NCBI GenBank assembly: GCA_947447995.1 | Contig: CANFLQ010000002.1 | Span: forward strand, 14,002-78,001 | Reading direction: 5' to 3' | DNA length: 64,000 nt | From: Bacteroidota bacterium | Lineage (GTDB): Bacteria; Bacteroidota; Bacteroidia; 2-12-FULL-35-15 | Shown: positions 7,878 through 55,965 of the stretch, piece by piece | Layout of the letters: every line of letters starts with the position of its first letter | Numbering within the stretch: position 1 is the stretch's first letter | Translations under genes and position numbers: made by a program | The notes under the pieces: generated by a model | Seen by the model: only the letters and a program-made list of their open reading frames with translations | The model's database searches: none | Told to the model about the DNA's origin: nothing

Positions 7878-10415
7878 CTAGTTTTCTTCTTTCTTAGCTT
7901 TACCGTTTTTTGAAGCTTTTGGCTTATTAATCTTTATTTTTATTTCTTGTTTTTCTTTGTCAAAATTAACATCAATTATATCACCTTCAGTTAATGGAGA
8001 ACTTATAATTTCCTCTGCCAATGGATCTTCAAGATATTTTTGAATAGCCCTTTTTAATGGTCTTGCTCCAAATTCAACATCGTATCCTTTGTCCGAAATA
8101 AAATCTTTCGCATCTTCAGAAATTTTAATGGTATACCCTAAACCTTTGATTCTGCCATATAAACTATCCAATTCAATGTCGATAATTTTATGAATATCAT
8201 CACGGGTTAAAGAGTTGAAGATAACTACATCATCAATACGATTTAAAAACTCAGGAGCAAAAGCTTTTTTTAAAGCACTTTCAATAACACCTTTTGTATG
8301 GTCGGTTGCCGTTTCAACCTTAGCTGAAGTTGAAAACCCTACACCTTGCCCAAAGTCTTTTAACTGGCGAGCCCCAATGTTAGAAGTCATGATGATAATG
8401 GTATTTTTAAAATCAATTTTTCTACCTAAACTATCCGTCATTTGTCCATCATCCAATGCTTGTAACAATAAGTTAAATACATCGGGATGTGCTTTTTCTA
8501 TCTCATCTAATAATACAACTGAATAAGGGCGACGACGAACTTTTTCTGTTAATTGCCCACCTTCTTCATATCCAACATAACCTGGAGGCGCACCAATTAA
8601 ACGAGATACAGCAAATTTTTCCATATATTCACTCATGTCAATACGGATTAGCGCATCATCATTATCAAATAAATATTTAGATAATATCTTCGCTAATTGT
8701 GTTTTACCTACACCTGTAGGACCAAGAAATATAAATGAACCAATTGGTTTATTCGGATCTTTTAATCCAGCACGATTACGTTGAATAGCTTTAACAACTT
8801 TTTTAACAGCATCATCCTGACCAATAACCTTACCTTGCAAAAGTTCAGCCATTTTAATCAACTTATTACCTTCGTTTTGTGCTATACGTTGAACGGGTAC
8901 ACCTGTCATCATCGCTACAACTTCAGCAACATTGTCTTCAGTAACTACCTCGCGATGCGTTTTGCTTTCCTCTTCCCATAATTTTTTAGCAGTTTCAAGC
9001 TGTTCTAAAAGTTGACGTTCTGTGTCGCGCAATCTGGCAGCTTCTTCATATTTTTGAGAACGAACAACTTTGTTCTTTTCCTCTTTAATTTCTTCCAGTT
9101 TTTTCTCAATTTCCAAAATATTTTTTGGAACATTAATGTTGATGATGTGAACACGAGAACCAGCTTCATCTAAAGCGTCAATAGCTTTATCAGGCAAATG
9201 ACGATCAGAAATGTAACGCGCTGTTAAGGTTACGCACGCTTTAATAGCTTCATCCGTATAGGTTACATTGTGATGATCTTCGTACTTCGCTTTGATATTG
9301 TTTAAAATCTCAATAGTTTCTTCTGTTGAAGTAGGCTCTATGATTACTTTTTGGAAACGTCTTTCCAAAGCACCATCTTTTTCAATATATTGACGGTATT
9401 CATCTAAAGTTGTCGCACCAATACATTGTATCTCGCCACGAGCTAGAGCTGGTTTAAACATGTTGGATGCATCTAATGAGCCTGAAGCACCACCAGCACC
9501 AATAATAGTATGAATCTCATCGATAAACAAAATTACGTCAGGAGATTTTTCCAATTCGTTCATCACCGCTTTCATACGCTCTTCAAATTGTCCGCGGTAT
9601 TTAGTACCGGCAACTAAAGAGGCTAAATCTAACGTAACAACACGTTTACCAAACAATACGCGAGAAACTTTGCGTTGAACAATACGTAGCGCTAACCCCT
9701 CTGCAATAGCTGATTTACCTACACCTGGTTCACCAATTAGCATTGGATTGTTTTTCTTTCTACGTGATAATATTTGAGAAACGCGTTCAATTTCTTTTTC
9801 GCGTCCAACAATAGGATCTAATTTTCCATCTTCGGCAGCTTTGGTCAAATCTCTTCCAAAGTTATCCAATACAGGGGTTTTTGATTTACTATCAGTAACT
9901 TTTTTAGTGCTGCTGGCACTAAATTGATCATCATCCCCTTCATCTTCAGGAGGATTCCCGGGCATTTCAGCTCTTGGTTCCGATTTAGATACTTCAAATT
10001 CTCTTTTCATAGTTTCGTAATCAATTTTAAATTTTTGTAATGATTTTGTAGCAACATTGTCTTCATCTTTTAAAATAGATAAAATTAAATGTTCGGTACC
10101 AATAATAGCACTTTTAAATAATTTGGCTTCCAAATAGGTTATTTTTAAAGCTCTTTCAGCTTGTTTCATTAAAGGGATATTTGCCAAGTTACTCACCTTG
10201 TGATTTCCTGTTCCTATTGCTTGCTCAATTATTTTGCGTAATTCCTGTAGGTCAACGTGTAAGGATTTAAGCAAACGAACCGCAGTTCCTTCGCCTTCGC
10301 GGATAATTCCTAACAATAAATGTTCGGTTCCTATATAGTCGTGCCCCAACCGTAAAGCCTCTTCGCGACTGTAGGTAATCACATCCTTAACTCTGGGTGA
10401 AAATTTAGCTTCCAT
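7878..10415 (-). CDS. clpC: ATP-dependent Clp protease ATP-binding subunit ClpC (Hsp100 AAA+ family).
   Basis: Double Clp_N repeat, two Walker A sites ([16 protein letters not shown]), a short middle region carrying a UVR-like motif ([16 protein letters not shown]) and [12 protein letters not shown]. 845 aa. Confidence 0.9.
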
Positions 10416-18228: not shown

Positions 18229-19761
18229 ATGCAAGAAACAATATTAATTCTCGATTTCGGATCACAATACACACAGTTGATAGCACGCAGAGTGAGAGAG
18301 CTCAACGTATATTGCGAGATTCATCCTTTCAATAAAATTCCAGAAATTACAAATAACATAAAAGGGATTATACTGTCGGGTAGCCCTTTTTCAGTTCGTG
18401 ATCCTCAATCGCCCAACCCCAATTTATCTGTTTTTAAAGGAAAATTACCTTTGTTGGGTGTTTGTTATGGAGCTCAGTTAATGGCGCAAAAATTTGGTGG
18501 CGAAGTATTGCCTTCAAAACACCGCGAATATGGTCGAGCTAATTTATCATTTGTAAACAGAGAAAGCGAACTTTTTAAAGGTATCAGTGATAATTCGCAG
18601 GTGTGGATGAGCCATGCAGATACCATCACCAAAATACCTGATAATTACGAGATTATATCCAGTACCAAAGATGTAAAGTTTGCCGGATATAGCGTAAAAG
18701 GTGAAAAAACGTATGGAATTCAATTTCATCCGGAAGTATACCATTCTACCGAAGGCGCTATACTTTTAAAAAATTTTTGTGTAGATATTTGTGCTTGCTC
18801 ACAAAACTGGACGCCCGATTCATTTGTTGATACTACCGTAAATGACTTAAAAAAACAATTGGGTAACGATAAAGTGGTTTTAGGACTTAGCGGAGGAGTA
18901 GATTCAAGCGTTGCAGCTGTTTTATTGCACAAAGCCATCGGTAAAAATTTGTTTTGCATTTTTGTAGATAATGGTTTGTTACGTAAAAATGAATTTGAAA
19001 CTGTGTTGGATTCATACAAGCACATGGGCTTAAACGTAAAAGGTGTAAATGCAAAGGATCGTTTTTATGAAGCCCTTTCAGGATTGGTTGACCCCGAATT
19101 AAAACGCAAAGCAATTGGCAAAGTTTTTATTGATGTATTTGATGATGAATCAAAACAAATACAAAATGTAAAATGGTTGGCTCAGGGAACAATTTATCCC
19201 GATGTTATTGAGTCTGTATCTGTTAATGGCGGACCATCGGCTACCATCAAATCTCACCACAATGTAGGAGGTTTACCCGATTATATGAAATTGAAAGTGG
19301 TGGAACCTTTACGTTTATTATTTAAAGATGAAGTGCGTAGAGTGGGCAAGTCGCTACATATTGATGATGCTATTTTGGACAGACATCCATTTCCTGGTCC
19401 TGGTTTAGCTATACGTATTTTAGGAGATATTACACTTGATAAAGTACGTATATTACAAGAAGTAGATTATATATTTATTGATAATTTAAAAACATCGGGT
19501 TTATATAAGGATGTGTGGCAAGCTGGCGCCATTTTTCTTCCAGTTAATTCGGTTGGAGTTATGGGTGATGAGCGTACTTATGAAAATGCAGTGGCATTAC
19601 GTGCTGTAACGTCTACAGATGGCATGACGGCTGATTGGTGTCATTTACCGTATGATTTTTTAGGTAAAGTATCTAATGAAATTATTAATAAAGTAAAAGG
19701 CATAAATCGTGTTGTTTACGATATAAGCTCTAAACCGCCTGCTACCATTGAATGGGAATAG
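18229..19761 (+). CDS. guaA: GMP synthase (glutamine-hydrolysing).
   Basis: GATase1 N-terminus ([27 protein letters not shown]) and ATP-PPase SGGVDSSV. C-terminus PATIEWE. Confidence 0.95.
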
Positions 19762-43049: not shown

Positions 43050-43072
43050 TATTTGAATTTAAAAATTAAAAA

Positions 43073-43108
43073 AGAGGCTGTATCAAAATTTGATACAGCC
43101 TCTTTTTA
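43073..43108 (+). terminator. Intrinsic terminator.
   Basis: AGAGGCTGTATCAAAA/TTTTGATACAGCCTCT near-perfect 16-bp stem followed by T5. Confidence 0.7.
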
Positions 43109-43124
43109 TTGCTATTTTTGATTT

Positions 43125-43925
43125 ATGTTAACCAAATCACTTTCTTTAAAACCATCAGAACTAAAAGATTTTTTAGACGAAAAACATGACCAATACAATC
43201 GTTTAAATTTTATAGAATCGGATCCAATTTCTATTCCTCACCAATTTACAAAAAAGGAGGATATTGAAATAGCCGGATTTTTGGCTGCAACTATTGCCTG
43301 GGGACAACGTGTTACTATTATTAAAAATGCGAATAAATTAATTAAATTAATGGATAGCAGTCCGTTTGATTTTGTAATGAATGCTAAGGAAAAAGACTTT
43401 GATTGTTTTGCTAATTTTAAACACCGAACATTCAACGGAATAGACGCTGTATTTTTTATGAAGTCATTACAAAATATTTATAAAAAACACAATGGTTTGC
43501 AAAATGCTTTTAGCTTCTCTCCCACTCGTTCCAATAAAAAGCTGATAGACATAAAAATATCTATTTCTAATTTCAGACAAATCTTTTTTTCCATTCCTTA
43601 TCCCAATAGAACTAGCAAACATGTTTCCAATCCATCTGAAAATTCATCTTCAAAGCGATTGTGTATGTATTTACGCTGGATGGTGCGTAAGGATAATCGT
43701 AAAGTGGATTTTGGAATATGGGATGTTTCCCCTTCCATACTTATGTGCCCTTTAGATGTGCATTCTGGAAATGTAGCACGCAAACTGGGGTTGTTAAATC
43801 GTACTCAAAACGATTGGAAGGCTGTTGAAGAATTAACAAATAATCTAAAAATTTTAGATGCCAAAGATCCTGTAAAATATGATTTTGCTTTGTTCGGATT
43901 GGGAGTATTTGAAAATTTTAATTAA
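43125..43925 (+). CDS. TIGR02757 (DUF2400) family protein.
   Basis: The N-terminus LDEKHDQYNRLNFIESDPISIPHQF...IEIAGFLAATIAWGQR resembles this conserved family as I recall it. Confidence 0.55.
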   Translation: MLTKSLSLKPSELKDFLDEKHDQYNRLNFIESDPISIPHQFTKKEDIEIAGFLAATIAWGQRVTIIKNANKLIKLMDSSPFDFVMNAKEKDFDCFANFKHRTFNGIDAVFFMKSLQNIYKKHNGLQNAFSFSPTRSNKKLIDIKISISNFRQIFFSIPYPNRTSKHVSNPSENSSSKRLCMYLRWMVRKDNRKVDFGIWDVSPSILMCPLDVHSGNVARKLGLLNRTQNDWKAVEELTNNLKILDAKDPVKYDFALFGLGVFENFN

Positions 43926-43965: not shown

Positions 43966-45321
43966 TTAAACGGTTGAACTAAAAATACTTGTAAGTGGTG
44001 CATTGCGAGATAACTTAGCATCAAATGCCATACAAATATTACGAATGAACGGGCGGGCAGAATCTTTCACTTTTAAATGAAGATGAGTAAGTTCTATAAG
44101 TTGATCCTTTTCCATTTCTATTAATCGGTTAAGCGCCTCATTAATCCAAGCCAATTTTTCAGTGGGTTTATCCCATGAAGTCTGGAATTTACACATAATA
44201 TTTAAAATGTGTTTCCTTACAATTAAATCTTCTTCGTTTAGCAAATGACCTTTAAAAATTGGAATTTGTCCCTTATCAATTAAGGCGTAATACTCTTCTA
44301 CCTTTTTTACATTTTGGGCATAAGCATACCAAGTATCACTTATTGAAGATACTCCTAAGCCAATCATTAATTGAGTATAACTATGTGTATACCCCATAAA
44401 ATTTCGATGCAATTTTCCATTCTCAGCTGCTTTAAAAAGCGAATCGGATTTCAAAGAAAAATGATCCATCCCAATTTCGACATAACCATTCTGCGAAAAT
44501 AAATCCTTGCCAATTTCATATAAAGCACGTTTTTCTTCATCAACCGGCAAATCGTTTTCGGTAAATTTCCGTTGTCCGGGTTTTACCCATGGAATATGTG
44601 CATAGCTATAAAAAGCTATCCTATCAGGCTTAAGCAAATTTACTTTATTGATGGTATCTACTACGCTATTGCGAGTTTGAAGCGGTAAGCCATAAATCAA
44701 ATCGAAATTGATAGAAGTATAACCAATTTTTCTAGCTGCATCTACGACTCTTTCAACACTTTCAAAAGGCTGTATCCTATTCACAATTGCCTGCACTTTT
44801 GGGTCAAAATCCTGAATTCCTAAACTCAATCTTCTAAATCCTAATTGATATAAAGTTTCTAAATGAGCATTACTAGTATTATTGGGATGGGCTTCAAAAC
44901 TAAATTCAGCATCATCACATACCACAGCTTTAGAAGTGATACCCTCGATCAATTGTTTTAAATGAATTGGAGAAAAAAAGGTAGGCGTGCCTCCACCTAA
45001 ATGAAGTTCTTTTATCTTTGGTTTTTCACCAAACACTTCCAAATACAAATCCCACTCTTTTAACAAAGCAGTAATGTAGGGTGTTTCAACAGCATGATTC
45101 ACTGTAATGCGCGTATTGCAACCGCAGTAAGTACATAAACTTTCGCAGAATGGAAGATGAATATAAATTGAAATACCATCCGTTGCATTGGTTTCTATAA
45201 ATGATTGTTTAATACTTGCTGTCCATTGATTAATTGTTGGTGGTATTTCATTCCAATACGGCACAGTGGGATAACTCGTATATCGTGGACCTGCAACATT
45301 GTATTTTTGAATTAAACTCAT
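43966..45321 (-). CDS. hemN: Oxygen-independent coproporphyrinogen III oxidase (radical SAM HemN).
   Basis: HLPFCESLCTYCGCN (Cx3Cx2CxC). The 451-aa size fits HemN rather than HemW. Confidence 0.9.
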   Translation of the reverse strand: MSLIQKYNVAGPRYTSYPTVPYWNEIPPTINQWTASIKQSFIETNATDGISIYIHLPFCESLCTYCGCNTRITVNHAVETPYITALLKEWDLYLEVFGEKPKIKELHLGGGTPTFFSPIHLKQLIEGITSKAVVCDDAEFSFEAHPNNTSNAHLETLYQLGFRRLSLGIQDFDPKVQAIVNRIQPFESVERVVDAARKIGYTSINFDLIYGLPLQTRNSVVDTINKVNLLKPDRIAFYSYAHIPWVKPGQRKFTENDLPVDEEKRALYEIGKDLFSQNGYVEIGMDHFSLKSDSLFKAAENGKLHRNFMGYTHSYTQLMIGLGVSSISDTWYAYAQNVKKVEEYYALIDKGQIPIFKGHLLNEEDLIVRKHILNIMCKFQTSWDKPTEKLAWINEALNRLIEMEKDQLIELTHLHLKVKDSARPFIRNICMAFDAKLSRNAPLTSIFSSTV

Positions 45322-45369
45322 CTAATATTTATTATTTTCACTTTAAATAAAACAAACTATTTGTTTGAT

Positions 45370-45819
45370 TTACAATAAATTATCTTCACAAAACCATTCA
45401 GCATACGATGTTTCCGTTTCCTGCAATTTTAAACGATTCAACTCAATATCCTTTGGCAATTGCATTTTTATTTGTTGAGCTATATCTATCAACATATTTT
45501 CACAGGTAGGTTGATAATTCACTAAAACCAATTTGCTAAATAAGATGTTTCCTTCCGCTAATTTTTTGTGGGGCGATTTTGCATTCAGAATGGTAGCATG
45601 ATCCAATTGTTCTATAATAGGTTTAACAATAGCTTTTATCTCATTAAAATCCATCACCATACCTTGTTTTACATGTTTTGGATCCTTAATTGGCTGACCT
45701 TTTACTGTAACAGATAAACAATAAGAATGTCCGTGTATGTTTTTACATGGACCGTCATATCCTGAAAGCGCATGTGCCATTTCAAAATGAAATTCTTTTG
45801 TAATCCTAACATTATTCAT
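45370..45819 (-). CDS. queD: 6-carboxytetrahydropterin synthase / PTPS family (QueD-like).
   Basis: FHFEMAHAL...CKNIHGHSY (C-x3-HGH zinc motif). Confidence 0.75.
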   Translation of the reverse strand: MNNVRITKEFHFEMAHALSGYDGPCKNIHGHSYCLSVTVKGQPIKDPKHVKQGMVMDFNEIKAIVKPIIEQLDHATILNAKSPHKKLAEGNILFSKLVLVNYQPTCENMLIDIAQQIKMQLPKDIELNRLKLQETETSYAEWFCEDNLL

Positions 45820-45850
45820 AGCATTGATTTTTATAATTATTTTTTACAAA

Positions 45851-46579
45851 TCATTTATGACAACACTTGTGAACCATTGGTTTTACAGTCGACATTTCTG
45901 GACTCACATAAGGTATACCTAAATTCATACCTCTTAAAATCAATAACAAAGCTGTAGTTACAATAAATATAGGCATGGCTTTATTAACCCTACTTCTAAA
46001 TTTTAAACTAATGGCATTACCAAACACCGACAATACGAACATAGCAGGTAAAGTTCCGAAACCAAACATAGCCATGAACAAAACCCCATCTAAACTATTT
46101 CCAGTGGCAATGGCACCTGCAATGCCTAAATAAACCAATCCGCAAGGCAATAAACCATTTAAAATACCAATAGAAAACAAAGTACTCATGTTTCGTTTTT
46201 TGAACAACATACTCAAGGATTGTTTTAATTTTCCAATGCCTGAATAAATAAAGCCTGTAATCTTATATCCACTAAAAACACTGTTCGGCAATAATACCAT
46301 CAGCAATATAGCTACCCCTAAAACAATGGAAGTAAGTTGCTGATAGCCAGCAATAACTACGCTTTGCCCTACCAACCCAAAAAAGCCTCCCAAAATACCG
46401 TAAGTGAACATTCGTCCGAAATTGTATATTAGTATTCCGCTGATTTTTGTGAATGCTGATTCCTGATTTAACGGTAAAGCCAAGGCTATTGGTCCGCACA
46501 TTCCAACACAGTGGAAGCTACCAATAAAACCTAACGTTATTGCCGTTAAAATAATATTCATTGTATTATGGTATAACAA
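45851..46579 (-). CDS. TauE/SafE (DsbD_2-like) family membrane protein of the cbb3 cluster.
   Basis: Polytopic membrane protein with GSFHCVGMCGPIALAL. Overlaps fixH by 14 bp. Confidence 0.7.
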   Translation of the reverse strand: MLYHNTMNIILTAITLGFIGSFHCVGMCGPIALALPLNQESAFTKISGILIYNFGRMFTYGILGGFFGLVGQSVVIAGYQQLTSIVLGVAILLMVLLPNSVFSGYKITGFIYSGIGKLKQSLSMLFKKRNMSTLFSIGILNGLLPCGLVYLGIAGAIATGNSLDGVLFMAMFGFGTLPAMFVLSVFGNAISLKFRSRVNKAMPIFIVTTALLLILRGMNLGIPYVSPEMSTVKPMVHKCCHK

Positions 46580-47012
46580 TTACCTCTTCTGAAAAATATT
46601 TTTTTTCAGTGACTGTCCAGTTGATTTGTAATTTATACATTCCTTTATATAAATTGTTTAAAGCAATGATTTTCTGTGTATTATTATTCAAATTAATGGT
46701 CGATTTAAAATCTTTAGATTTATCGGAAGGTCTAAAAAAATAGATTTCTCCTTGCACTTTTTGACCTTTAAACAGACTAGGAAATTGCAACTGAATTTCC
46801 GATGCTGAAATTGTGTGGGTGATTTTTTCGGATAAGGCATTGGCATTATTCATTTCATTTATCTTATCCTGAAATGCAAGTTCTCGTTCATAATAATCGT
46901 CGCTTACCAAATCAACTTGCTGATTAACACAAACATATACCATAACACCTATCATTAATACGAATGAACTATACAATACGGCAATTTTTGTACCCCAGCT
47001 TATGTTTATCAT
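46566..47012 (-). CDS. FixH/CcoH-family protein.
   Basis: Single N-terminal TM segment plus a periplasmic domain. Sits between ccoG and the TauE-like gene, as in cbb3 assembly clusters. Confidence 0.65.
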   Translation of the reverse strand: MINISWGTKIAVLYSSFVLMIGVMVYVCVNQQVDLVSDDYYERELAFQDKINEMNNANALSEKITHTISASEIQLQFPSLFKGQKVQGEIYFFRPSDKSKDFKSTINLNNNTQKIIALNNLYKGMYKLQINWTVTEKKYFSEEVIVIP

Positions 47013-47045
47013 AACTACAACATTTAATATTAAAACTCCTTATTC

Positions 47046-48467
47046 CTATTTTTTGGGGACCACACCTAAAAAATTGGTTTGAACGGTTTCTATTTTTTTT
47101 CCTTTAGTATACACCCCAATAGTCAGTTTTGTTTTTCTGTTTTTTATATCCTTTTTATTCAGGATGATAAAAAACTCGCCGCTTGCTACGTTTTCTTTTC
47201 CTACTTGAATTACATTTCTACCAATCATTTTAATTTTACCGGAACCAGATTCTAGGGTGAGAACTATAGGTAAATCTTTTCTTGTTTTATTTACCAGTTT
47301 AATGTTATATAAATTACTTAAACAATTATCAGGTTGTTCTTGATATAACATTCCTGGAGTCCTTAAAATACTGGTTTCCACATCTGTTCTGCTTACCAAT
47401 ACGGTTATCAAAACTCCAATTAATAAAGTAAGAACTATTGAATATGAAATAATACGGGGCGTAATTTTTAATTTTGTTTTGTTGGCAATACCATTCTCCG
47501 AATCGTAACGTATCAATCCTTTCTTTTTACCAACACTTTCCATCATGTGGTCACAAACATCGATACAAGCGGTGCAATTAACACACTCCAACTGAGTACC
47601 GTTGCGGATATCGATTCCTGTAGGACAAACTTTTACACATTGAAAACAATCGATACAATCCCCTTTTGTTACTTCTTGTTTTTTTGAATATTTTGCTCTT
47701 GGCTCACCACGTAGATAATCGTAGGCAACCAAAATTGAATTTTTATCCAACAAAACACCTTGTAATCTACCATAAGGACAAACAACTATACAAGCCTGTT
47801 CTCTGAACCAATAAAAAACGCCAAAAAATATCCCGGTAAAAATCAATAAGGAAATTAAAGTACTGATATTGTTAGCGATAGGTTCAACTATCATTTTTTC
47901 TAATTCATCAATACCTATAATATATGCTAAAAAGGTATTTGCCACCGCAAATGAAACGGCAAAAAATACGGCAATTTTTGAACCTCTTTTTCTTATTTTT
48001 TCAGCATTCCAAGGTAATTTATCTAATGCTTTTTGGTGAGTCGCATCTCCCTCTATCCAATATTCAATTTTACGGAATACCATTTCCATTAATACTGTTT
48101 GAGGACAAGCCCAACCGCAAAACACCCTACCAAATACAACCGTAAAAAGAACGATAAACACAATAAATGTTAGCATCCCCAACACAAATAAGAACAAATC
48201 CTGAGGCCAAAACACCACGCCAAACAAAATAAATTTTCGTTCAATCAGGTTGAGCAAAAAAGGAGGCTCACCGTGTATTTTCATAAACGGTAAGAAAAAA
48301 AATATGGCTAAGTAAACAATACTTAATACCGTTCTTTTATTATACAGCTTTCCTTTTGGCTTTTGCGCAAATATCCAAACTCGTTTTCCGTCTTTTACGG
48401 TTGCTATCGTATCACGAAACGATCCACTCTCCAACTCTCCATCTTTTTCCATAAAACTATTTTGCAA
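47046..48467 (-). CDS. ccoG: cbb3 oxidase accessory protein CcoG/FixG (4Fe-4S ferredoxin-type).
   Basis: TM segments plus CIDCFQCVKVCPTGIDIRNG...CVNCTACIDVCD, a double ferredoxin Cys motif. Confidence 0.85.
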   Translation of the reverse strand: MQNSFMEKDGELESGSFRDTIATVKDGKRVWIFAQKPKGKLYNKRTVLSIVYLAIFFFLPFMKIHGEPPFLLNLIERKFILFGVVFWPQDLFLFVLGMLTFIVFIVLFTVVFGRVFCGWACPQTVLMEMVFRKIEYWIEGDATHQKALDKLPWNAEKIRKRGSKIAVFFAVSFAVANTFLAYIIGIDELEKMIVEPIANNISTLISLLIFTGIFFGVFYWFREQACIVVCPYGRLQGVLLDKNSILVAYDYLRGEPRAKYSKKQEVTKGDCIDCFQCVKVCPTGIDIRNGTQLECVNCTACIDVCDHMMESVGKKKGLIRYDSENGIANKTKLKITPRIISYSIVLTLLIGVLITVLVSRTDVETSILRTPGMLYQEQPDNCLSNLYNIKLVNKTRKDLPIVLTLESGSGKIKMIGRNVIQVGKENVASGEFFIILNKKDIKNRKTKLTIGVYTKGKKIETVQTNFLGVVPKK

Positions 48468-49641
48468 CCACCTTTAAGCTATCCACCATTGGAGCAATGG
48501 CGGTACTATCTGTTTTTAATGAATCTGAAACAATTGCAGATTCAGAATAAAGTTCACCTTGAGGAGCTTTTGCGTTAACCGGATTGCTTCCTTTCAACGT
48601 TTTAATATAAGAAGCCAGTTGATGAATTTGTACAGGAGAAAAATCGGCCTGCCATGCTTTCATCCCCTTATCGGACCAACCATATTTAATTGAAGTAAAT
48701 ACATCTTTTATACTTCCTCCGTGCAACCAATACTCATCCGTTAAATTAGGACCTACTCCACCTTCGCCTAATTTACCATGGCAAGCAAAACAATTTTCTT
48801 TATAAATTGCCTCACCTTTAGTAATTTCGGCTTGGTCGGTTAACATGGTTACTGAATTTTCATTCACATTGTTAGCATTCTTTTTTTGATATTCTTCCTT
48901 TGCAATAGAGGCTGCAACAATTGATCTGTTGTATTCATCGGCTTGTAACATTTCTTTGCCAATAACATGATGGTCTAATAAATAAACAACTGCAAAAACA
49001 ATGGTCAAATAAAATCCATATTTCCACCACGGTGGCAAATCATTATCCAACTCTCTGATACCATCATAATTATGATCAAGCATAATATCACTTTCTTTTT
49101 CTATTGCAACTGAGGCGTTCATTATTTCAAAAAATGAAGGTTCCTCAACCTTTATTTCAATTTCTTTTTTGGTAAATAACTTAATACAACTTATAAGGAT
49201 GCCAATAATTAAAACTTCAAAACCAATCAGTAACAACATTAAATAAAGCAATCCGTCAGGCAAGTTTATACTATTTGTAACAGTATTTGAATCAACTGTT
49301 TGTGAAAATAATTGCTGCCCCGAAGAAACAAATATTATAAATGCTATTACCCCTATCATTTTACCGGAATTATCTTTACTTTTTTCATTTCCAATAGCGG
49401 CAACATTTTTTAATACACCTCCTAAAACAGCTATTACAATTATCAACATAACAATAACACCTAACAACACATTAAATAATGGAATTGAAAAAAGTGACAA
49501 TGAATTAATCGTTTCAACTGTTTCAGAGTTTTGAGCCATAGAACTATAACCAATCAAGATTGCTAATCCTGTTAATACATATTTAGAATAATCTCTTTTA
49601 AATGACTCTAAACGTGGAAATATATTTTTTTTCATATTCAT
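48457..49641 (-). CDS. ccoP: cbb3-type cytochrome c oxidase subunit CcoP (FixP).
   Basis: N-terminal membrane region and a C-terminal cytochrome c domain with CFACHG. Overlaps ccoG by 11 bp. Confidence 0.8.
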   Translation of the reverse strand: MNMKKNIFPRLESFKRDYSKYVLTGLAILIGYSSMAQNSETVETINSLSLFSIPLFNVLLGVIVMLIIVIAVLGGVLKNVAAIGNEKSKDNSGKMIGVIAFIIFVSSGQQLFSQTVDSNTVTNSINLPDGLLYLMLLLIGFEVLIIGILISCIKLFTKKEIEIKVEEPSFFEIMNASVAIEKESDIMLDHNYDGIRELDNDLPPWWKYGFYLTIVFAVVYLLDHHVIGKEMLQADEYNRSIVAASIAKEEYQKKNANNVNENSVTMLTDQAEITKGEAIYKENCFACHGKLGEGGVGPNLTDEYWLHGGSIKDVFTSIKYGWSDKGMKAWQADFSPVQIHQLASYIKTLKGSNPVNAKAPQGELYSESAIVSDSLKTDSTAIAPMVDSLKVVAK

Positions 49642-49726
49642 ATAATTTATATTTTTTATTGCCCATCTTGATCCGTCAGACTTTTCAATTTTATAATACT
49701 AACTCAAAAAACGGACAGACAACTGA

Positions 49727-49885
49727 TTAGTTAAGAGGAATGTTCTTCATTTCTGCAATTTTCTCCTTTTTTACCGTAACTGCCCATAAAATAAGTACAA
49801 GGAAGAAAACAAAGAAGATACCTAAAGAAATCATCGGATAGATTGATATCCCTGATATTGTTTCCAAATAATGTTTAAATTTCAT
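49727..49885 (-). CDS. ccoQ: Small membrane protein, CcoQ-like (52 aa). Below the ORF-track cutoff.
   Basis: The reverse-complement ORF reads MKFKHYLETISGISIYPMISLGIFFVFFLVLILWAVTVKKEKIAEMKNIPLN. Its stop is 12 bp after the ccoNO stop. Confidence 0.5.
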   Translation of the reverse strand: MKFKHYLETISGISIYPMISLGIFFVFFLVLILWAVTVKKEKIAEMKNIPLN

Positions 49886-49896
49886 ATCTATATATT

Positions 49897-52029
49897 TTAT
49901 TTTTTAGTAGTAAAAACTTGATTATTCGCTTTAATGTCTTTTCCTAATCGTTGTAAATAAGCTATTACCGCAATAATTTCTTTGTCGCTAGTAGTTTCTA
50001 TTCCATCTTTTTTTAGTCCGGCAGTTATCAAATCGGCTTGAACCATTAATGCTTTATTTGCAATTTTATCATACCCTTGCGGATAAGGAACACCTAATGT
50101 TATCATTGCTCTAATTTTAGGAGCTGTGCTAGATGTATCTAAATTATCATCCAACATGAATTGATATGCAGGCATAATGGAACCAGGCGACATAGTACTT
50201 GGATCTAACATGTGATTGTAATGCCATGAATCGGGATATTTTCCACCTTCTCGTGCTAAATCGGGACCGGTGCGTTTTGAACCCCACAAAAACGGATGGT
50301 CATATACAAACTCCCCTGCTTTAGAATATTCGCCATAACGCTCTGTATCAAAACGTAATGGGCGAATCATTTGAGAATGACAAGTTGAGCAACCCTCACG
50401 GATATAAATATCACGCCCTTGTAACTCGAGCGGTGTATATGGTTTTACACTTGCAATAGTCGGGATATTTGATTTTATCATAAAGGTTGGAATCATTTCA
50501 ATAGCTCCTCCTATCAAAACAACAACTAAACTAAATACCATCAATTGGATAGGTTTACGTTCAATCCAACGGTGCCAGTGTTCTCCTTCATGGCTACCTT
50601 CTATTTTTGAAAGAGCGGGAGCTTGTGCATCTTCATTTTCCAATAAATTACCTTGTTTAATTGTTTTTATCATATTGTAAATCATGATGATAAAGCCAAA
50701 TAAATACATGGCTCCACCGATTGATCTCATAATATACATCGATCTAAGCTGAGTTACTGTTTCAAGAAAATTTGGATATTTTAAGAAACCCTCAGGAGTA
50801 AATTGTTGCCACATAAAGTATTGGGTAAAACCCGCCCAATATAAAGGAATTGCATAAAACAAAATACCTAATGAACCCAACCAAAAATGCCAGTTGGCTA
50901 ATTTTTTAGAATATAAATCTGTTTGATAAATTCTTGGAATCAACCAATATAAGATACCAAAAGTTAAGAAGCCGTTCCAACCTAAAGCACCAATATGAAC
51001 GTGAGCTACTATCCAATCTGTAAAGTGAGCAATGGCATTTACTTTTTTCAATGAAAGCATAGGACCTTCAAAAGTTGCCATACCATAAGCTGTGATAGCT
51101 ACCACCATAAATTTCAACACAACACTTTCACGTACCTTATCCCATGCCCCTCTAAGTGTTAATAAGCCATTAATCATCCCACCCCAAGATGGGGCAATCA
51201 ACATGATTGAAAATACAACACCTAATGATTGAGCCCAATCTGGTAATGCAGTATATAATAAATGGTGAGGACCAGCCCAAATGTATAGAAATATTAGAGC
51301 CCAAAAATGGATAATGGATAACCTGTATGAATAAACCGGACGTTCGGCAGCTTTAGGAATAAAATAATACATCAAACCTAAATAAGGGGTTGTTAAGAAA
51401 AACGCCACCGCATTGTGCCCATACCACCATTGCACCAATGCATCCTGAACACCGGCATATACAGGGTAACTTTTAAAAAGTGATACAGGGATTTCAACAG
51501 AATTAACAACATGAAGAACTGTAACGGTTACAAATGTTGCAATGTAAAACCAAATAGCTACATATAAATGACGCTCTCTTCGTTTTAAAATAGTTCCAAA
51601 CATATTCCAACCGAATATCAACCAAGTTATAGCAATAGCAACATCTATTGGCCATTCTAACTCGGCATATTCTTTACCTGTAGTTAAACCCAGAGGTAAA
51701 GAAAGCGCACCGGCAATAATTATTAACTGCCATAACCAAAAGTGAACTTTGCTTAAAGTGTCGTTATACATACGTGCTTTACACAAACGCTGAAGGGAAT
51801 AATAAACTCCCATAAAAATACCATTCCCAACAAATGCGAAAGCTACGGCATTGGTATGTACGGGACGAATACGACCGAAGGAAGCTATAGGAATAAAATT
51901 TAAAGCAGGGAAAATCAATTCTAATGCAATGTATAAACCAACGGTCATCCCTGCCAAGCCCCAAATAATTGTAGCAATTGCAAACTGTTTAACAATTTTG
52001 TTGTCGTACGAAAACTTTTCTAATTCCAT
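49897..52029 (-). CDS. ccoN: cbb3-type cytochrome c oxidase, fused subunits CcoN and CcoO.
   Basis: Heme-copper oxidase subunit I membrane domain with His ligands. C-terminal mono-haem CcoO domain with CSTCH. 710 aa. Confidence 0.95.
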   Translation of the reverse strand: MELEKFSYDNKIVKQFAIATIIWGLAGMTVGLYIALELIFPALNFIPIASFGRIRPVHTNAVAFAFVGNGIFMGVYYSLQRLCKARMYNDTLSKVHFWLWQLIIIAGALSLPLGLTTGKEYAELEWPIDVAIAITWLIFGWNMFGTILKRRERHLYVAIWFYIATFVTVTVLHVVNSVEIPVSLFKSYPVYAGVQDALVQWWYGHNAVAFFLTTPYLGLMYYFIPKAAERPVYSYRLSIIHFWALIFLYIWAGPHHLLYTALPDWAQSLGVVFSIMLIAPSWGGMINGLLTLRGAWDKVRESVVLKFMVVAITAYGMATFEGPMLSLKKVNAIAHFTDWIVAHVHIGALGWNGFLTFGILYWLIPRIYQTDLYSKKLANWHFWLGSLGILFYAIPLYWAGFTQYFMWQQFTPEGFLKYPNFLETVTQLRSMYIMRSIGGAMYLFGFIIMIYNMIKTIKQGNLLENEDAQAPALSKIEGSHEGEHWHRWIERKPIQLMVFSLVVVLIGGAIEMIPTFMIKSNIPTIASVKPYTPLELQGRDIYIREGCSTCHSQMIRPLRFDTERYGEYSKAGEFVYDHPFLWGSKRTGPDLAREGGKYPDSWHYNHMLDPSTMSPGSIMPAYQFMLDDNLDTSSTAPKIRAMITLGVPYPQGYDKIANKALMVQADLITAGLKKDGIETTSDKEIIAVIAYLQRLGKDIKANNQVFTTKK

Positions 52030-52080: not shown

Positions 52081-52239
52081 TTATTTTTTCTTTTTCACCA
52101 CTTCATCATCAAATAACATACGAACCGATGGCGTATAATCATCATCGAATTGCCCATTTTTAACACTCCAAATAAATGCTATCAAAAAACCTAAGGCGGT
52201 TATAACACTGGCTCCTATAAGTACAAACAATACGCTCAT
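52081..52239 (-). CDS. ccoS: CcoS/FixS-like cbb3 maturation protein (52 aa). Below the ORF-track cutoff.
   Basis: The reverse-complement ORF reads MSVLFVLIGASVITALGFLIAFIWSVKNGQFDDDYTPSVRMLFDDEVVKKKK. The FDD motif is typical of CcoS. Confidence 0.65.
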   Translation of the reverse strand: MSVLFVLIGASVITALGFLIAFIWSVKNGQFDDDYTPSVRMLFDDEVVKKKK

Positions 52240-52296
52240 TGAGTAGGGTTATTAAAATTTCGCAACAAAGTTATTGGTCAGGTTGGGGATAATTTA

Positions 52297-52333
52297 TGAC
52301 GCTCGTCAGTTTAAGAATATGATACAAATCATA
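52297..52333. promoter_or_regulatory. Two Crp/FNR-like palindromes in the ccoS-ccoNO / histidine-kinase divergent region: TGACG-ct-CGTCA and TATGAT-acaa-ATCATA.
   Basis: Read directly from sequence at 52297-52308 and 52318-52333. A candidate -7 box for the minus strand (CAAAGTTA, i.e. TAACTTTG) is at 52266-52273. Confidence 0.45.
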
Positions 52334-52440
52334 CTTTTTTAAAACAGTTCGGGCTATTTTTACTTTTCATATAATTTTATATCGAGCTATTTATTAACTT
52401 TAAGCCAGCAAATTTTAATTTTAAAAGGGAAACCAGTAAA

Positions 52441-53673
52441 ATGAATAGCAAAGAGGGGTTTCAGGCATTATTTGAGTTTGCAACAGAAGGCATTATTGTT
52501 TCAGATTCTAAAGGAGTAATTATTAAAGTAAACCCTGCTGCCGAAAAATTATTTGGTTATGAACATAATGAGTTAATTGGCAAAACAATTGAAACTCTTA
52601 TTCCTCAAAAATTTGCTCATCATCATAAAGGCATCCGCGAAAATTATTTAAAGCACCCAAAACCTAGATCCATGGGCTTAGGGATGGATCTTTTTGCCAA
52701 AAGAAAAGATGATTCTGAGTTTCAAGTTGAAATTAGCCTAAGTTCTTTTGATACCAGTGAAGGGAAATTTGCAATTGCTTTTATTATTGATATTACCGTT
52801 AGAAAACAACAAGGTGATATTTTAAAGAAAACCAATAACGATTTACATGAGCTTTCAGAAAAATTAAAAAATGCAAATCTTGAACTAGAAAAACGAGTTG
52901 AAGACAGAACACTTATGCTGCGTGAAGCCATTTTTGAATTAGAACAAAACAAAAAAGAAATAAGCATCGCTTTGGCTAAGGAAAAGGAACTAAATGATTT
53001 AAAGAGCAGATTTGTTTCTATGGCATCCCATGAATTTCGTACACCTTTGAGTACAATATTATCCTCTGTTGCACTTATTGCAAAATACAATACAGAGGAA
53101 ACGGAAGATAAACGACAAAAACACATTACTCGAGTAAAGTCCTCTGTAAACCATTTAACCGAGATTCTTAACGACTTATTATCATTAAGCAAACTAGAAG
53201 AAGGTATGTTGATTTGTAATCCTGTTGTATTTGACATAGTTGATTTTTCAAAAGATATTGTTCAGGATATGCAAGCGCTTTCAAAAGAAGGACAAACAAT
53301 TGTTTATGAGCATATTGGAGATGATAAAATAGTGAATTTAGATATTAAATTCTTGAAAAATATTTTTATCAATTTATTATCCAATGCCATTAAATTTTCA
53401 CCTGAATATCATCAAATTGATTTAAAAACTGAAACCTCAAAAAATGAAATAACAATAACAATAAAAGATTCAGGAATAGGAATTGAAAAAGAAGATCAAA
53501 AAAGGTTATTTGAACGCTTTTTCCGCGGACAAAATGCAACAAACATTCAAGGAACCGGATTGGGATTAAACATTGTTACCAAATATATTGAAATGATGAA
53601 AGGAACAATTGGTTTTGAAAGTGAAGTTGGAAAAGGAACAACCTTTATTATTAAACTTCCATTAATTGGTTAA
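52441..53673 (+). CDS. PAS-domain sensor histidine kinase; the PAS domain is FixL-like and possibly haem-binding.
   Basis: N-terminal PAS, coiled-coil, HisKA motif SHEFRTPL, and HATPase_c (N box NLLSNAIKFS, G boxes DSGIGI and GTGLGL). The stretch IPQKFAHHHKGIRENY...GLGMDLFAKRKDDSEF aligns without gaps to the FixL haem-PAS proximal-His region as I recall it. Confidence 0.85.
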   Translation: MNSKEGFQALFEFATEGIIVSDSKGVIIKVNPAAEKLFGYEHNELIGKTIETLIPQKFAHHHKGIRENYLKHPKPRSMGLGMDLFAKRKDDSEFQVEISLSSFDTSEGKFAIAFIIDITVRKQQGDILKKTNNDLHELSEKLKNANLELEKRVEDRTLMLREAIFELEQNKKEISIALAKEKELNDLKSRFVSMASHEFRTPLSTILSSVALIAKYNTEETEDKRQKHITRVKSSVNHLTEILNDLLSLSKLEEGMLICNPVVFDIVDFSKDIVQDMQALSKEGQTIVYEHIGDDKIVNLDIKFLKNIFINLLSNAIKFSPEYHQIDLKTETSKNEITITIKDSGIGIEKEDQKRLFERFFRGQNATNIQGTGLGLNIVTKYIEMMKGTIGFESEVGKGTTFIIKLPLIG

Positions 53674-53684
53674 CTATTTATACG

Positions 53685-54743
53685 ATGAAAACAATTTTAC
53701 TGATAGAAGATAATCCCGAAATGCGTGAGAATACAATGGAAATTCTTGAGCTGGACAAATACAAAGTAATTCCCGCAAAAAATGGTAAAGAAGGTGTTGA
53801 ATTAGCACAAAACAATAAAGTTGATTTGATAATTTGTGATATTATGATGCCTTTGTTGGATGGTTATGGTGTTTTGCATTTATTAAGTAAAAATCCTGAA
53901 ACCGCAAGTATACCTTTCATTTTTTTAACGGCAAAATCGGAGCGAATGGATTTTAGAAAAGGAATGGAAATGGGAGCCGATGACTATATCACCAAACCTT
54001 TTGATGATATGGAATTACTGAATGCTGTTGAAAGCAGAATCAAAAAAAGTGAATTATTACGTTCTGAGTTTTCCAAAAATCAGGAAGGATTCGATAATTT
54101 TTTCACAGAGATTAAAAACCTGAGCGACTTTGGTAAATTATCAAATGCAAGAACCAACCGAATTTTTAAGAAAAAACAAATAATTTTTACTGAAGGTAGT
54201 TATCCAAACGGTTTATATTTTATAAATAAAGGTAAAGTAAAAACTTTTAAAACAAATACTGATGGAAAAGAGCTAATTACCGGGTTATTTAAAGACGGTG
54301 ATTTTATTGGGTATCATGCTTTATTGGAAGAAAGTGTTTATAACGAATCTGCTGCAGCATTAGAAGAAACTGAAACCTGTTTAGTATCTAAAGACGATTT
54401 TTTTATCCTTATTTATAAAAATAATGAAGTATCAAAAAAATTCATTCAAATGCTTTCCGATAATATCGTTGAAAAAGAAAAAGCGTTATTAAATTTAGCT
54501 TATAATTCGGTACGAAAACGAGTTGCCGAAGCCTTAATGGAATTAAAATTAAAATACCATAATGAAGGTGAAAAACAATTTAGTATGCCGATTTTGCGCG
54601 AAGATTTAGCGAACATGGCAGGTACTTCGCAAGAAACAACCATTAGAACACTTGCCGATTTTAAAGACGAAAAACTAATAGATATAAATGGCGGAACAAT
54701 TACATTGTTAAATGTTGAAAAACTAAAAAAGTTGAAGAATTAA
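53685..54743 (+). CDS. Hybrid response regulator: receiver (REC) domain fused to a Crp/FNR-type cNMP-binding domain and HTH.
   Basis: REC domain (LLIEDN...DLIICDIMMP...LTAK, phosphoacceptor Asp). Effector-domain-like beta-roll (IFTEGSYPNGLYFINKGKVK). C-terminal HTH_Crp (ILREDLANMAGTSQETTIRTL). Confidence 0.85.
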   Translation: MKTILLIEDNPEMRENTMEILELDKYKVIPAKNGKEGVELAQNNKVDLIICDIMMPLLDGYGVLHLLSKNPETASIPFIFLTAKSERMDFRKGMEMGADDYITKPFDDMELLNAVESRIKKSELLRSEFSKNQEGFDNFFTEIKNLSDFGKLSNARTNRIFKKKQIIFTEGSYPNGLYFINKGKVKTFKTNTDGKELITGLFKDGDFIGYHALLEESVYNESAAALEETETCLVSKDDFFILIYKNNEVSKKFIQMLSDNIVEKEKALLNLAYNSVRKRVAEALMELKLKYHNEGEKQFSMPILREDLANMAGTSQETTIRTLADFKDEKLIDINGGTITLLNVEKLKKLKN

Positions 54744-54745
54744 CT

Positions 54746-54789
54746 ATACCAAAATTAATCTTGAAACGAATCAAGATTAATTTTGGTAT
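54746..54789. terminator. Bidirectional terminator between the convergent response-regulator and desaturase genes.
   Basis: Perfect 19-bp arms ATACCAAAATTAATCTTGA / TCAAGATTAATTTTGGTAT with a 6-nt loop. Confidence 0.75.
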
Positions 54790-55902: not shown

Positions 55903-55965
55903 AAAAAGTGCGAATCATAGTTTTTTATAAATGCGAAAATGTGACTTAAATCATATTGTATAGAA

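Follow-up and report, generated by a model that had tools for sequence, protein, structure and literature searches.

Two palindromes lie between the divergent ccoS and histidine kinase genes of the window, the whole 64,000-nucleotide stretch of DNA that was analyzed. They are probably the tandem operator of the adjacent REC-Crp response regulator, which would be the output of a low-oxygen switch headed by a FixL-like kinase. Comparison with related loci confirms the palindromes as real, evolutionarily conserved sites of predicted Crp/FNR type, and the pair appears to be a rigid module, with a center-to-center distance of 22 bp in most genomes and of 23 bp in the window. Low-oxygen sensing is poorly understood in the aerobic Bacteroidota, which are abundant degraders in soil, lakes, and the ocean and include fish pathogens. 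The locus offers a candidate pair of sensor kinase and regulator, an exact operator-promoter architecture, and a predicted regulon.

The Two Boxes and Their Neighborhood

The features of the locus are collected in Table 1. The names given to the neighboring genes in the initial annotation (ccoS, the histidine kinase, and the REC-Crp regulator) are borne out by Pfam. The genes 3' of ccoS, from ccoNO to hemN (43966-52029, minus strand), are co-directional and tightly spaced as judged from the spacing of the ORFs, and a hairpin search found no convincing internal terminator in this run. We infer that the genes from ccoS to hemN form a single operon, and those at 43966-52029 are probable targets of the promoter on the ccoS side; a TGA-N6-TCA box 5' of hemN is absent within the window. 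The hairpin at 54746-54789 is probably a bidirectional terminator, at which the kinase/regulator transcript is likely to stop. A TTGA-N6-TCAA sequence at 54762, considered as a third operator, was rejected because it is the apex of this hairpin. A second hairpin, with a perfect 18-bp stem and T-runs on both sides, lies at 43069-43107, just 5' of a plus strand ORF (43125-43925), and it also looks like a bidirectional terminator. The CcoP protein is 394 residues long and has an extension of ~180 residues at the N terminus, ahead of the FixP_N domain, which is unusually long among subunit III proteins of cbb3 oxidases.

Table 1. Features of the ccoS/histidine kinase locus, in coordinates of the window
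Feature	Position	Strand	Remarks
Box A, TGACGCTCGTCA	52297-52308		core TGA-N6-TCA; proximal to ccoS, distal to the kinase promoter
Box B, TATGATACAAATCATA	52318-52333		core TGATACAAATCA at 52320-52331; proximal to the kinase promoter, distal to ccoS
Bacteroidota sigma-A -7 box of the ccoS promoter, CAAAGTTA	52266-52273	-	reads TAACTTTG on the minus strand
Putative -7 box of the kinase/regulator promoter, TATTTTTA	52355-52362	+	5 of 6 consensus positions
ccoS (FixS)	52081-52239	-	Pfam PF03597, E 3.6e-22; leads the cbb3 oxidase operon
ccoNO (fused)	49897-52029	-	Pfam
ccoQ-like ORF, 52 aa	49727-49885	-	ORF listing
ccoP	48457-49641	-	Pfam
ccoG	47046-48467	-	Pfam
fixH	46566-47012	-	Pfam
DsbD_2 protein	45851-46579	-	Pfam
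ORF, 149 aa	45370-45819	-	ORF listing
Radical-SAM hemN-like gene	43966-45321	-	Pfam
PAS-HisKA-HATPase histidine kinase	52441-53673	+	Pfam; divergent from ccoS
REC-cNMP-HTH_Crp response regulator	53685-54743	+	Pfam
Hairpin, 19-bp stem	54746-54789		between the convergent regulator and desaturase genes

The initial annotation had placed two Crp/FNR-type palindromes between ccoS and the kinase gene, and both are present at the positions given. Each is a copy of the motif TGA-N6-TCA (TGAY-N4-RTCA), the distance between their centers is 23 bp, and the bases at the edges of the cores read ATGA/CTGA in box A and ATGA/ATGA in box B. The sequence at 52318-52333 had been described as an FNR/FixK box. It does match TTGAT-N4-ATCAA at 4 of 5 positions in each half-site, but because the first T of the TTGAT half-site is unconserved, it is not a canonical one. 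The sequence at 52297-52308, described as a second and tighter palindrome, is correctly positioned but is not of another kind, both boxes being TGAY-N4-RTCA. The boxes are therefore of the Crp/FNR type and are not canonical FNR/FixK boxes.

Within the window, the evidence for the pair is modest. TGACGNNCGTCA occurs once as compared with 0.00 expected from 100 shuffles, whereas TGATNNNNATCA occurs twice as compared with 2.0 expected and is not significant taken singly. Single TGA-N6-TCA cores are at chance level (18 as compared with 18.2 expected from a Markov model), and a pair of cores separated by 22 or 23 bp appeared anywhere in 64 kb in 19 of 2000 Markov simulations (~1%). No second pair at either distance is found elsewhere in the 64-kb window. 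A weight matrix was built from other genomes without use of the window, with a family consensus of TGAY-N4-RTCA from 87 oriented pairs, and it ranks box A first and box B third within the 64 kb. The matches that rank second and fifth fall inside ORFs. High-scoring boxes at 19632 and 41381, which are inside long ORFs, were treated as chance occurrences.

Spacing and Promoter Geometry in Related Loci

Two groups of loci, 164 in all and each carrying the regulator, were used for comparison. Set 1 consists of 80 genome loci that were picked solely for encoding a homolog of the regulator (46-65% identity) and that come from Chitinophagales, Cytophagales, Sphingobacteriales, Flavobacteriales, and unclassified Bacteroidia. 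Set 2 consists of 84 independent loci from metagenomes and exact-protein look-ups; the metagenome homologs are at most 67% identical to the regulator, and the closer relatives came from the look-ups. In set 1, 67 pairs of TGA-N6-TCA cores are separated by exactly 22 bp, and at most four are found at any other distance up to 60 bp. The corresponding numbers for set 2 are 53 pairs at 22 bp, eight at 23 bp, and at most two elsewhere. The 23-bp class, to which the window belongs, is thus a minority that accounts for 3 of the 70 pairs at 22 or 23 bp in set 1 and for 8 of 61 in set 2. Almost all of the pairs are intergenic and lie 40-150 bp 5' of a gene. Their density around the regulator loci is 7.3 per 100 kb overall as compared with a chance expectation of about 0.016, a difference of several hundredfold, and it peaks at the kinase promoter and just 3' of the regulator gene.

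The pairs also have a fixed relation to the -7 box. Of 79 orientations, 50 have a match to TAnnTTTG (at least five of six positions) that begins exactly 35 nt from the first T of the proximal box, and each of the other offsets from 25 to 45 accounts for at most four. In the transcription-start map of Flavobacterium psychrophilum, TAnnTTTG is located at -12 to -5 (PMC9723704), so that the proximal box would extend from -47 to -36 and be centered at -41.5; at the usual spacing of 22 bp, the center of the distal box would be at -63.5. The segment that separates the -7 box from the proximal box contains no conserved base, indicating that the promoters have no -33 element.

The same geometry is present on both strands of the window. 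On the minus strand, TAACTTTG (52273 to 52266) begins exactly 35 nt past the first T of box A (52308 to 52297), and transcription on the ccoS side would begin near 52261, with the ccoS ATG 22 nt farther on and the centers of box A and box B at about -41.5 and -64.5, respectively. The -7 box that was noted at 52266-52273 in the initial annotation is conserved in related loci, where CAAA..TA is invariant, and the position of ~42 bp upstream of the start that was given for 52297-52308 agrees with a center at -41.5 if the -7 box is at -12 to -5 as in Flavobacterium (PMC9723704). On the plus strand, TATTTTTA begins exactly 35 nt past the start of the core of box B; transcription on the kinase side would start near 52367, and here it is box B that would be centered at about -41.5 and box A at about -64.5. 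The counterpart of TATTTTTA is an aligned TAnnTTTA in locus L169 and is displaced by 1 nt in L170, and the chance of a five-of-six match in AT-rich DNA is estimated to be ~1% at a given position. The evidence for this putative -7 box is weaker than that for the ccoS side. The arrangement fits a bidirectional module that would serve both of the divergent promoters, and comparable bidirectional cases are found in L003, L039, and L074. The initial annotation had offered activation of cco or autoregulation as alternative roles. Both promoters are suitably placed, and because the 35-nt distance to a -7 box is found on each strand, both roles are probable and the choice between them is probably to be dropped.

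In the orthologous promoter regions, where a lack of conservation would have spoken against the initial annotation, the boxes are kept both 5' of ccoS and, in many loci, 5' of the kinase gene. The regions upstream of ccoS contain the module in 16-17 of 23 loci (L014 also has both boxes). Anchored on the -7 box, it has the form [TGAYnnnnRTCA]-10-[TGAnnnnnnTCA]-23-[TAnnTTTG] in 16 of the 23, and it is absent in six, in some of which ccoS is inside a longer operon. Upstream of the kinase gene, the module reaches a score of 14 of 18 or higher in about 44 of 123 regions (approximately one-third), with 17 of 18 in the window, and the kinase promoter carries it in many loci irrespective of whether cco is near. 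The intergenic region of the window was also aligned with those of L165, L169, L170, L163, and L161. L165 is from the same species and is identical to the window in this region, and the regulators of the other four are 77-83% identical to that of the window. The six loci share a mean identity of 55%, against which the -7 box and both palindromes stand out as invariant blocks, with TATGA....TCAG invariant in box A and TGAT..A.ATCA invariant in box B. The boxes of L169 are separated by 22 bp, indicating that the 23-bp distance in the window is the result of a lineage-specific 1-bp insertion. In L015 (Chitinophagaceae), a long degenerate tandem repeat (cattcaccacattcatcacatt...) is located about 90-250 nt 5' of ccoS, directly upstream of the tandem boxes.

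The Regulator, the Kinase, and Alternative Explanations

The regulator comprises an N-terminal receiver (REC) domain (Response_reg, E 1.7e-28) and a Crp-type DNA-binding domain (HTH_Crp_2, E 1.6e-17; both Pfam) and so is neither an Fe-S FNR nor a stand-alone protein of the FixK type. Receiver residues E8, D9, D52, T82, and K104 are invariant in 18 diverse homologs. The C-terminal half aligns with the structures of FNR and CRP, and the recognition helix, SQETTIRTL, aligns with that of FNR such that Glu317 corresponds to FNR Glu209 and Arg321 to FNR Arg213. Both residues are invariant in 163 of 163 homologs, and the position of FNR Ser212 is occupied by Ile in 150 of the 163. Neither the regulator nor the kinase reaches the cut-off of any NCBIfam model; the Fnr model gives 82.9 bits with the regulator as compared with a cut-off of 228, and the CRP model is also below its cut-off. 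Covariation of helix residues 316 and 320 with the base that flanks TGA was looked for, and none was found. In the largest group of homologs (Thr316/Ile320, 122 loci), TGA is preceded by A in 175 cases, by C in 129, by T in 75, and by G in 25. The regulator is proposed as the protein that binds boxes A and B from their co-localization and from the generic Glu/Arg recognition helix.

The kinase gene is directly 5' of the regulator gene in most loci. The kinase is cytoplasmic and has a PAS domain similar to those of FixL and DosP. Among solved structures, the best match to this domain is FixL (1d06, E 3e-14). Of the 15 matches, 14 have E values of 8e-11 or better and are FixL or DosP/YddU (EcDOS) chains, apart from a single unnamed multi-sensor kinase; the remaining match, to a sensor protein that is also unnamed (2r78), is weak (E 8e-4). 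His62 of the kinase aligns with the histidine that is the proximal heme ligand of FixL (...RHEH-DGY...) and is kept in 125 of 131 homologs, whereas the neighboring positions vary. The kinase is thus likely to be a heme-PAS sensor of the FixL/DosP type, as predicted from its sequence. Because the residue aligned with the oxygen-contacting Arg220 of FixL varies (Arg, Met, or Leu), the kinase could respond to NO, to CO, or to a redox signal instead of to O2. Low oxygen is the most likely upstream signal. In a transcriptome study of F. psychrophilum, both the cbb3 operon and hemN are strongly induced when oxygen is limiting (PMC9723704); that report names no regulator, and the terms Fnr and Crp are absent from its main and supplementary text. 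In L161 (3313-4964), L162 (3329-4980), and L168 (302-1953), whose regulators are 81-85% identical to that of the window, two extra genes are present between the PAS kinase and the REC-Crp regulator. They encode a stand-alone receiver of 149 residues and a REC-HisKA-HATPase hybrid of ~400 residues, which suggests a multi-step phosphorelay variant of the pathway.

In the proposed mechanism, low oxygen would activate the heme-PAS kinase, which would phosphorylate Asp52 of the REC-Crp regulator. Each TGA-N6-TCA box would be occupied by one Crp-type dimer, and the two dimers on the abutting boxes would lie on the same face of the helix, with about two turns between them. The dimer on the proximal box, at the -41.5 position of class II Crp/FNR activators, would recruit RNA polymerase and activate a promoter that has the Bacteroidota -7 box TAnnTTTG without a -33 element. 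Box A would serve the ccoS-ccoNOQP-ccoGH...hemN operon on the minus strand, and box B would serve the kinase/regulator operon on the plus strand and so bring about positive autoregulation. A single-step pathway of this kind would do what FixL-FixJ-FixK does in two. We infer activation, as opposed to repression, and cooperation of the two dimers, and the fixed 22-bp abutment suggests that they may form a tetramer that is either pre-formed or induced by phosphorylation.

The alternative that survives best is that the boxes are bound by another, stand-alone Crp/FNR protein that is encoded elsewhere and that the REC-Crp regulator acts at other sites or indirectly, as FixJ does through FixK. We regard this as unlikely, although it has some points in its favor: the TGA-N6-TCA core is generic and shared by the sites of many Crp/FNR proteins, the Glu and Arg of the helix are unspecific, the covariation of helix and motif was not found, Bacteroidota genomes usually encode several Crp/FNR paralogs, and a stand-alone Crp-like gene is located close by in one locus, L026. 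It does not account for the presence of the module at the promoter of the regulator operon and past the stop codon of the regulator gene in many unrelated genomes or for a pair density around this gene that is several hundred times that expected by chance. In addition, no other gene of the Crp family is consistently close to the regulator gene.

Considerably less probable is a role of the bound regulator in repression or anti-activation, in which occupancy of -36 to -70 would block the polymerase or an upstream element until it is relieved by the signal. Some Crp/FNR proteins do repress from sites that overlap promoters, but the sites of repressors are usually found over the -7 box or the transcription start, and a rigid placement, predicted to be at -41.5, in dozens of promoters that have no -33 element is a signature of class II activation. 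The targets are also of an inducible and not a constitutive kind, cbb3 oxidase being induced by oxygen limitation in a flavobacterium (PMC9723704).

It is scarcely credible that the palindromes are chance occurrences in AT-rich intergenic DNA, or DNA or RNA hairpins that have no protein partner, because, although TGATNNNNATCA is at its chance rate and the region folds slightly better than shuffled sequences (z = -2.0, -8.7 kcal/mol), the cores are kept but the six bases in the middle vary, stem covariation is absent, the 22-bp spacing and the 35-nt offset of the -7 box are exact in loci from across the phylum, a hairpin in box A would have a loop of only 2 nt, and the boxes are 5' of both predicted transcription starts. 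A reading of the region as a non-coding RNA or hairpin was rejected in view of the lack of an Rfam match, the weak folding, and a conservation pattern that is not stem-like.

Candidate Regulon and Relation to Known Systems

Genes 3' of the modules were collected from two independent sets. Those connected with respiration and regulation encode the PAS kinase, FixS, COX1/FixO, FixG, and a P-type ATPase of the CcoI type, and those connected with stress and metabolism encode Usp, HSP20, DoxX, YceI, BON, 2-hydroxyacid dehydrogenase, Pyridox_ox_2, ScdA_N, hemerythrin, and thioredoxin. Taken together, they look like a regulon of the hypoxia or dormancy type. In set 1, cco or hemN genes are present within 8 kb in about 30 of the 80 loci, with varying arrangements. 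In Sphingobacteriales, the module often begins directly past the stop codon of the regulator gene, ahead of the next gene. In L047, L053, L056, L059, L062, L064, L066, and L070, for example, it starts (near 9040) 2 nt before the end of the regulator gene, has a near-identical distal box, AACTGAYNAANRTCAT, and drives either a gene of ~340 codons that is similar to 2-hydroxyacid dehydrogenases or one that encodes ~150 residues.

With respect to known systems, the REC-Crp pathway is similar to FixL-FixJ-FixK2 of rhizobia in that a predicted heme-PAS histidine kinase heads it and in the proposed logic of low-oxygen induction. It differs from the rhizobial pathway in that one response regulator carries the Crp-type DNA-binding domain and there is no separate FixJ and FixK. 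The boxes have the TGA-N6-TCA core of the FixK boxes (TTGA-N6-TCAA) that precede fixNOQP and hemN in rhizobia and, like them, are located before a cbb3 operon. In contrast to FixK boxes, those in the Bacteroidota loci form a tandem pair that appears to be obligatory, at 22-23 bp, the base before TGA is A or C and not T, and the promoter has the Bacteroidota -7 box TAnnTTTG. The class II promoters of FNR and ANR in Proteobacteria, including those with ANR boxes at cco, share the TGAT-N4-ATCA sequence, and the Bacteroidota sites would resemble theirs in being centered at -41.5, a position that is deduced here from the -7 box. In both cases the Glu and Arg of the recognition helix are conserved and cbb3 oxidase is a target, in the Bacteroidota loci a probable one. 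However, FNR and ANR have an N-terminal [4Fe-4S] cluster in place of the phospho-accepting REC domain and bind single as opposed to tandem sites, and FNR Ser212 is mostly Ile in the Bacteroidota regulators.

The proposed arrangement also resembles that of class III CRP promoters, each of which binds two dimers of the Crp family, the one downstream at about -41.5. In the CRP tandems that are known, the separation is usually 30-50 bp or more and is variable, whereas the boxes in Bacteroidota abut at a fixed 22 bp. In Mycobacterium tuberculosis, the heme kinases DosS and DosT and the regulator DosR control Usp, HSP20 alpha-crystallin, and genes of the pyridoxamine-phosphate-oxidase family, with positive autoregulation. 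A putative heme kinase, a response regulator, and probable positive autoregulation are features of the Bacteroidota loci as well, and Usp, HSP20, and pyridoxamine-phosphate-oxidase-family genes are likewise found 3' of the modules, but the output domain of DosR is of the LuxR/NarL type and its motif is different, the sensing domains of DosS and DosT are GAF and not PAS domains, and cbb3 oxidase is not a target of DosR. The features that appear to be new are a FixL-like kinase whose proposed output is a REC-Crp protein, a tandem operator with a rigid spacing of 22 bp, and the link between this operator and the -7 promoter of Bacteroidota. A search of full-text literature, with most subscription journals outside its range, found no description of a REC-Crp regulator or FixL-like kinase that controls cco in Bacteroidota.

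If the tandem-operator reading is correct, the locus is a clear case of a Crp/FNR fold that has been taken over by two-component signaling, and it shows how an activator works with the -7/-33 type of promoter in Bacteroidota. A broader reading would combine a hypoxia switch shared by Bacteroidota, an obligate pair of dimers, a new class of promoter, and a phylum-wide regulon, and on this combination our judgment is evenly divided. Were it to hold, the aerobic Bacteroidota would share a master hypoxia switch that consists of a FixL-like heme-PAS kinase and its direct phosphorylation target, an FNR-like protein with a receiver domain in place of the Fe-S sensor. The latter protein would act only as a pair of dimers, on boxes that are exactly 22 bp apart with the proximal one at -41.5, and so define a new, rigid class of promoter for the unusual Bacteroidota sigma-A. 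The phylum-wide regulon would consist of cbb3 oxidase, hemN, Usp, HSP20, DoxX, and fermentative dehydrogenases.

Two further sites have a possible connection with oxygen. The match that ranks fourth with the weight matrix in the window is a lone TGACTTAAATCA box at 55942-55953, which is intergenic and lies 78 nt 5' of the ATG of the desaturase gene (55864, minus strand). A -7 box, TATCTTTG, is located 56 nt from its start, a position similar to that of a distal box but 1 nt off and without a proximal partner. The site may belong to the regulon in a weak or degenerate form, and an oxygen-requiring fatty-acid desaturase is plausible as a target. In L170, a truncated-globin gene (1371-1739, PF01152) is located between the tandem boxes and the kinase gene, where it would head the autoregulated operon and be another oxygen-related member of the regulon.
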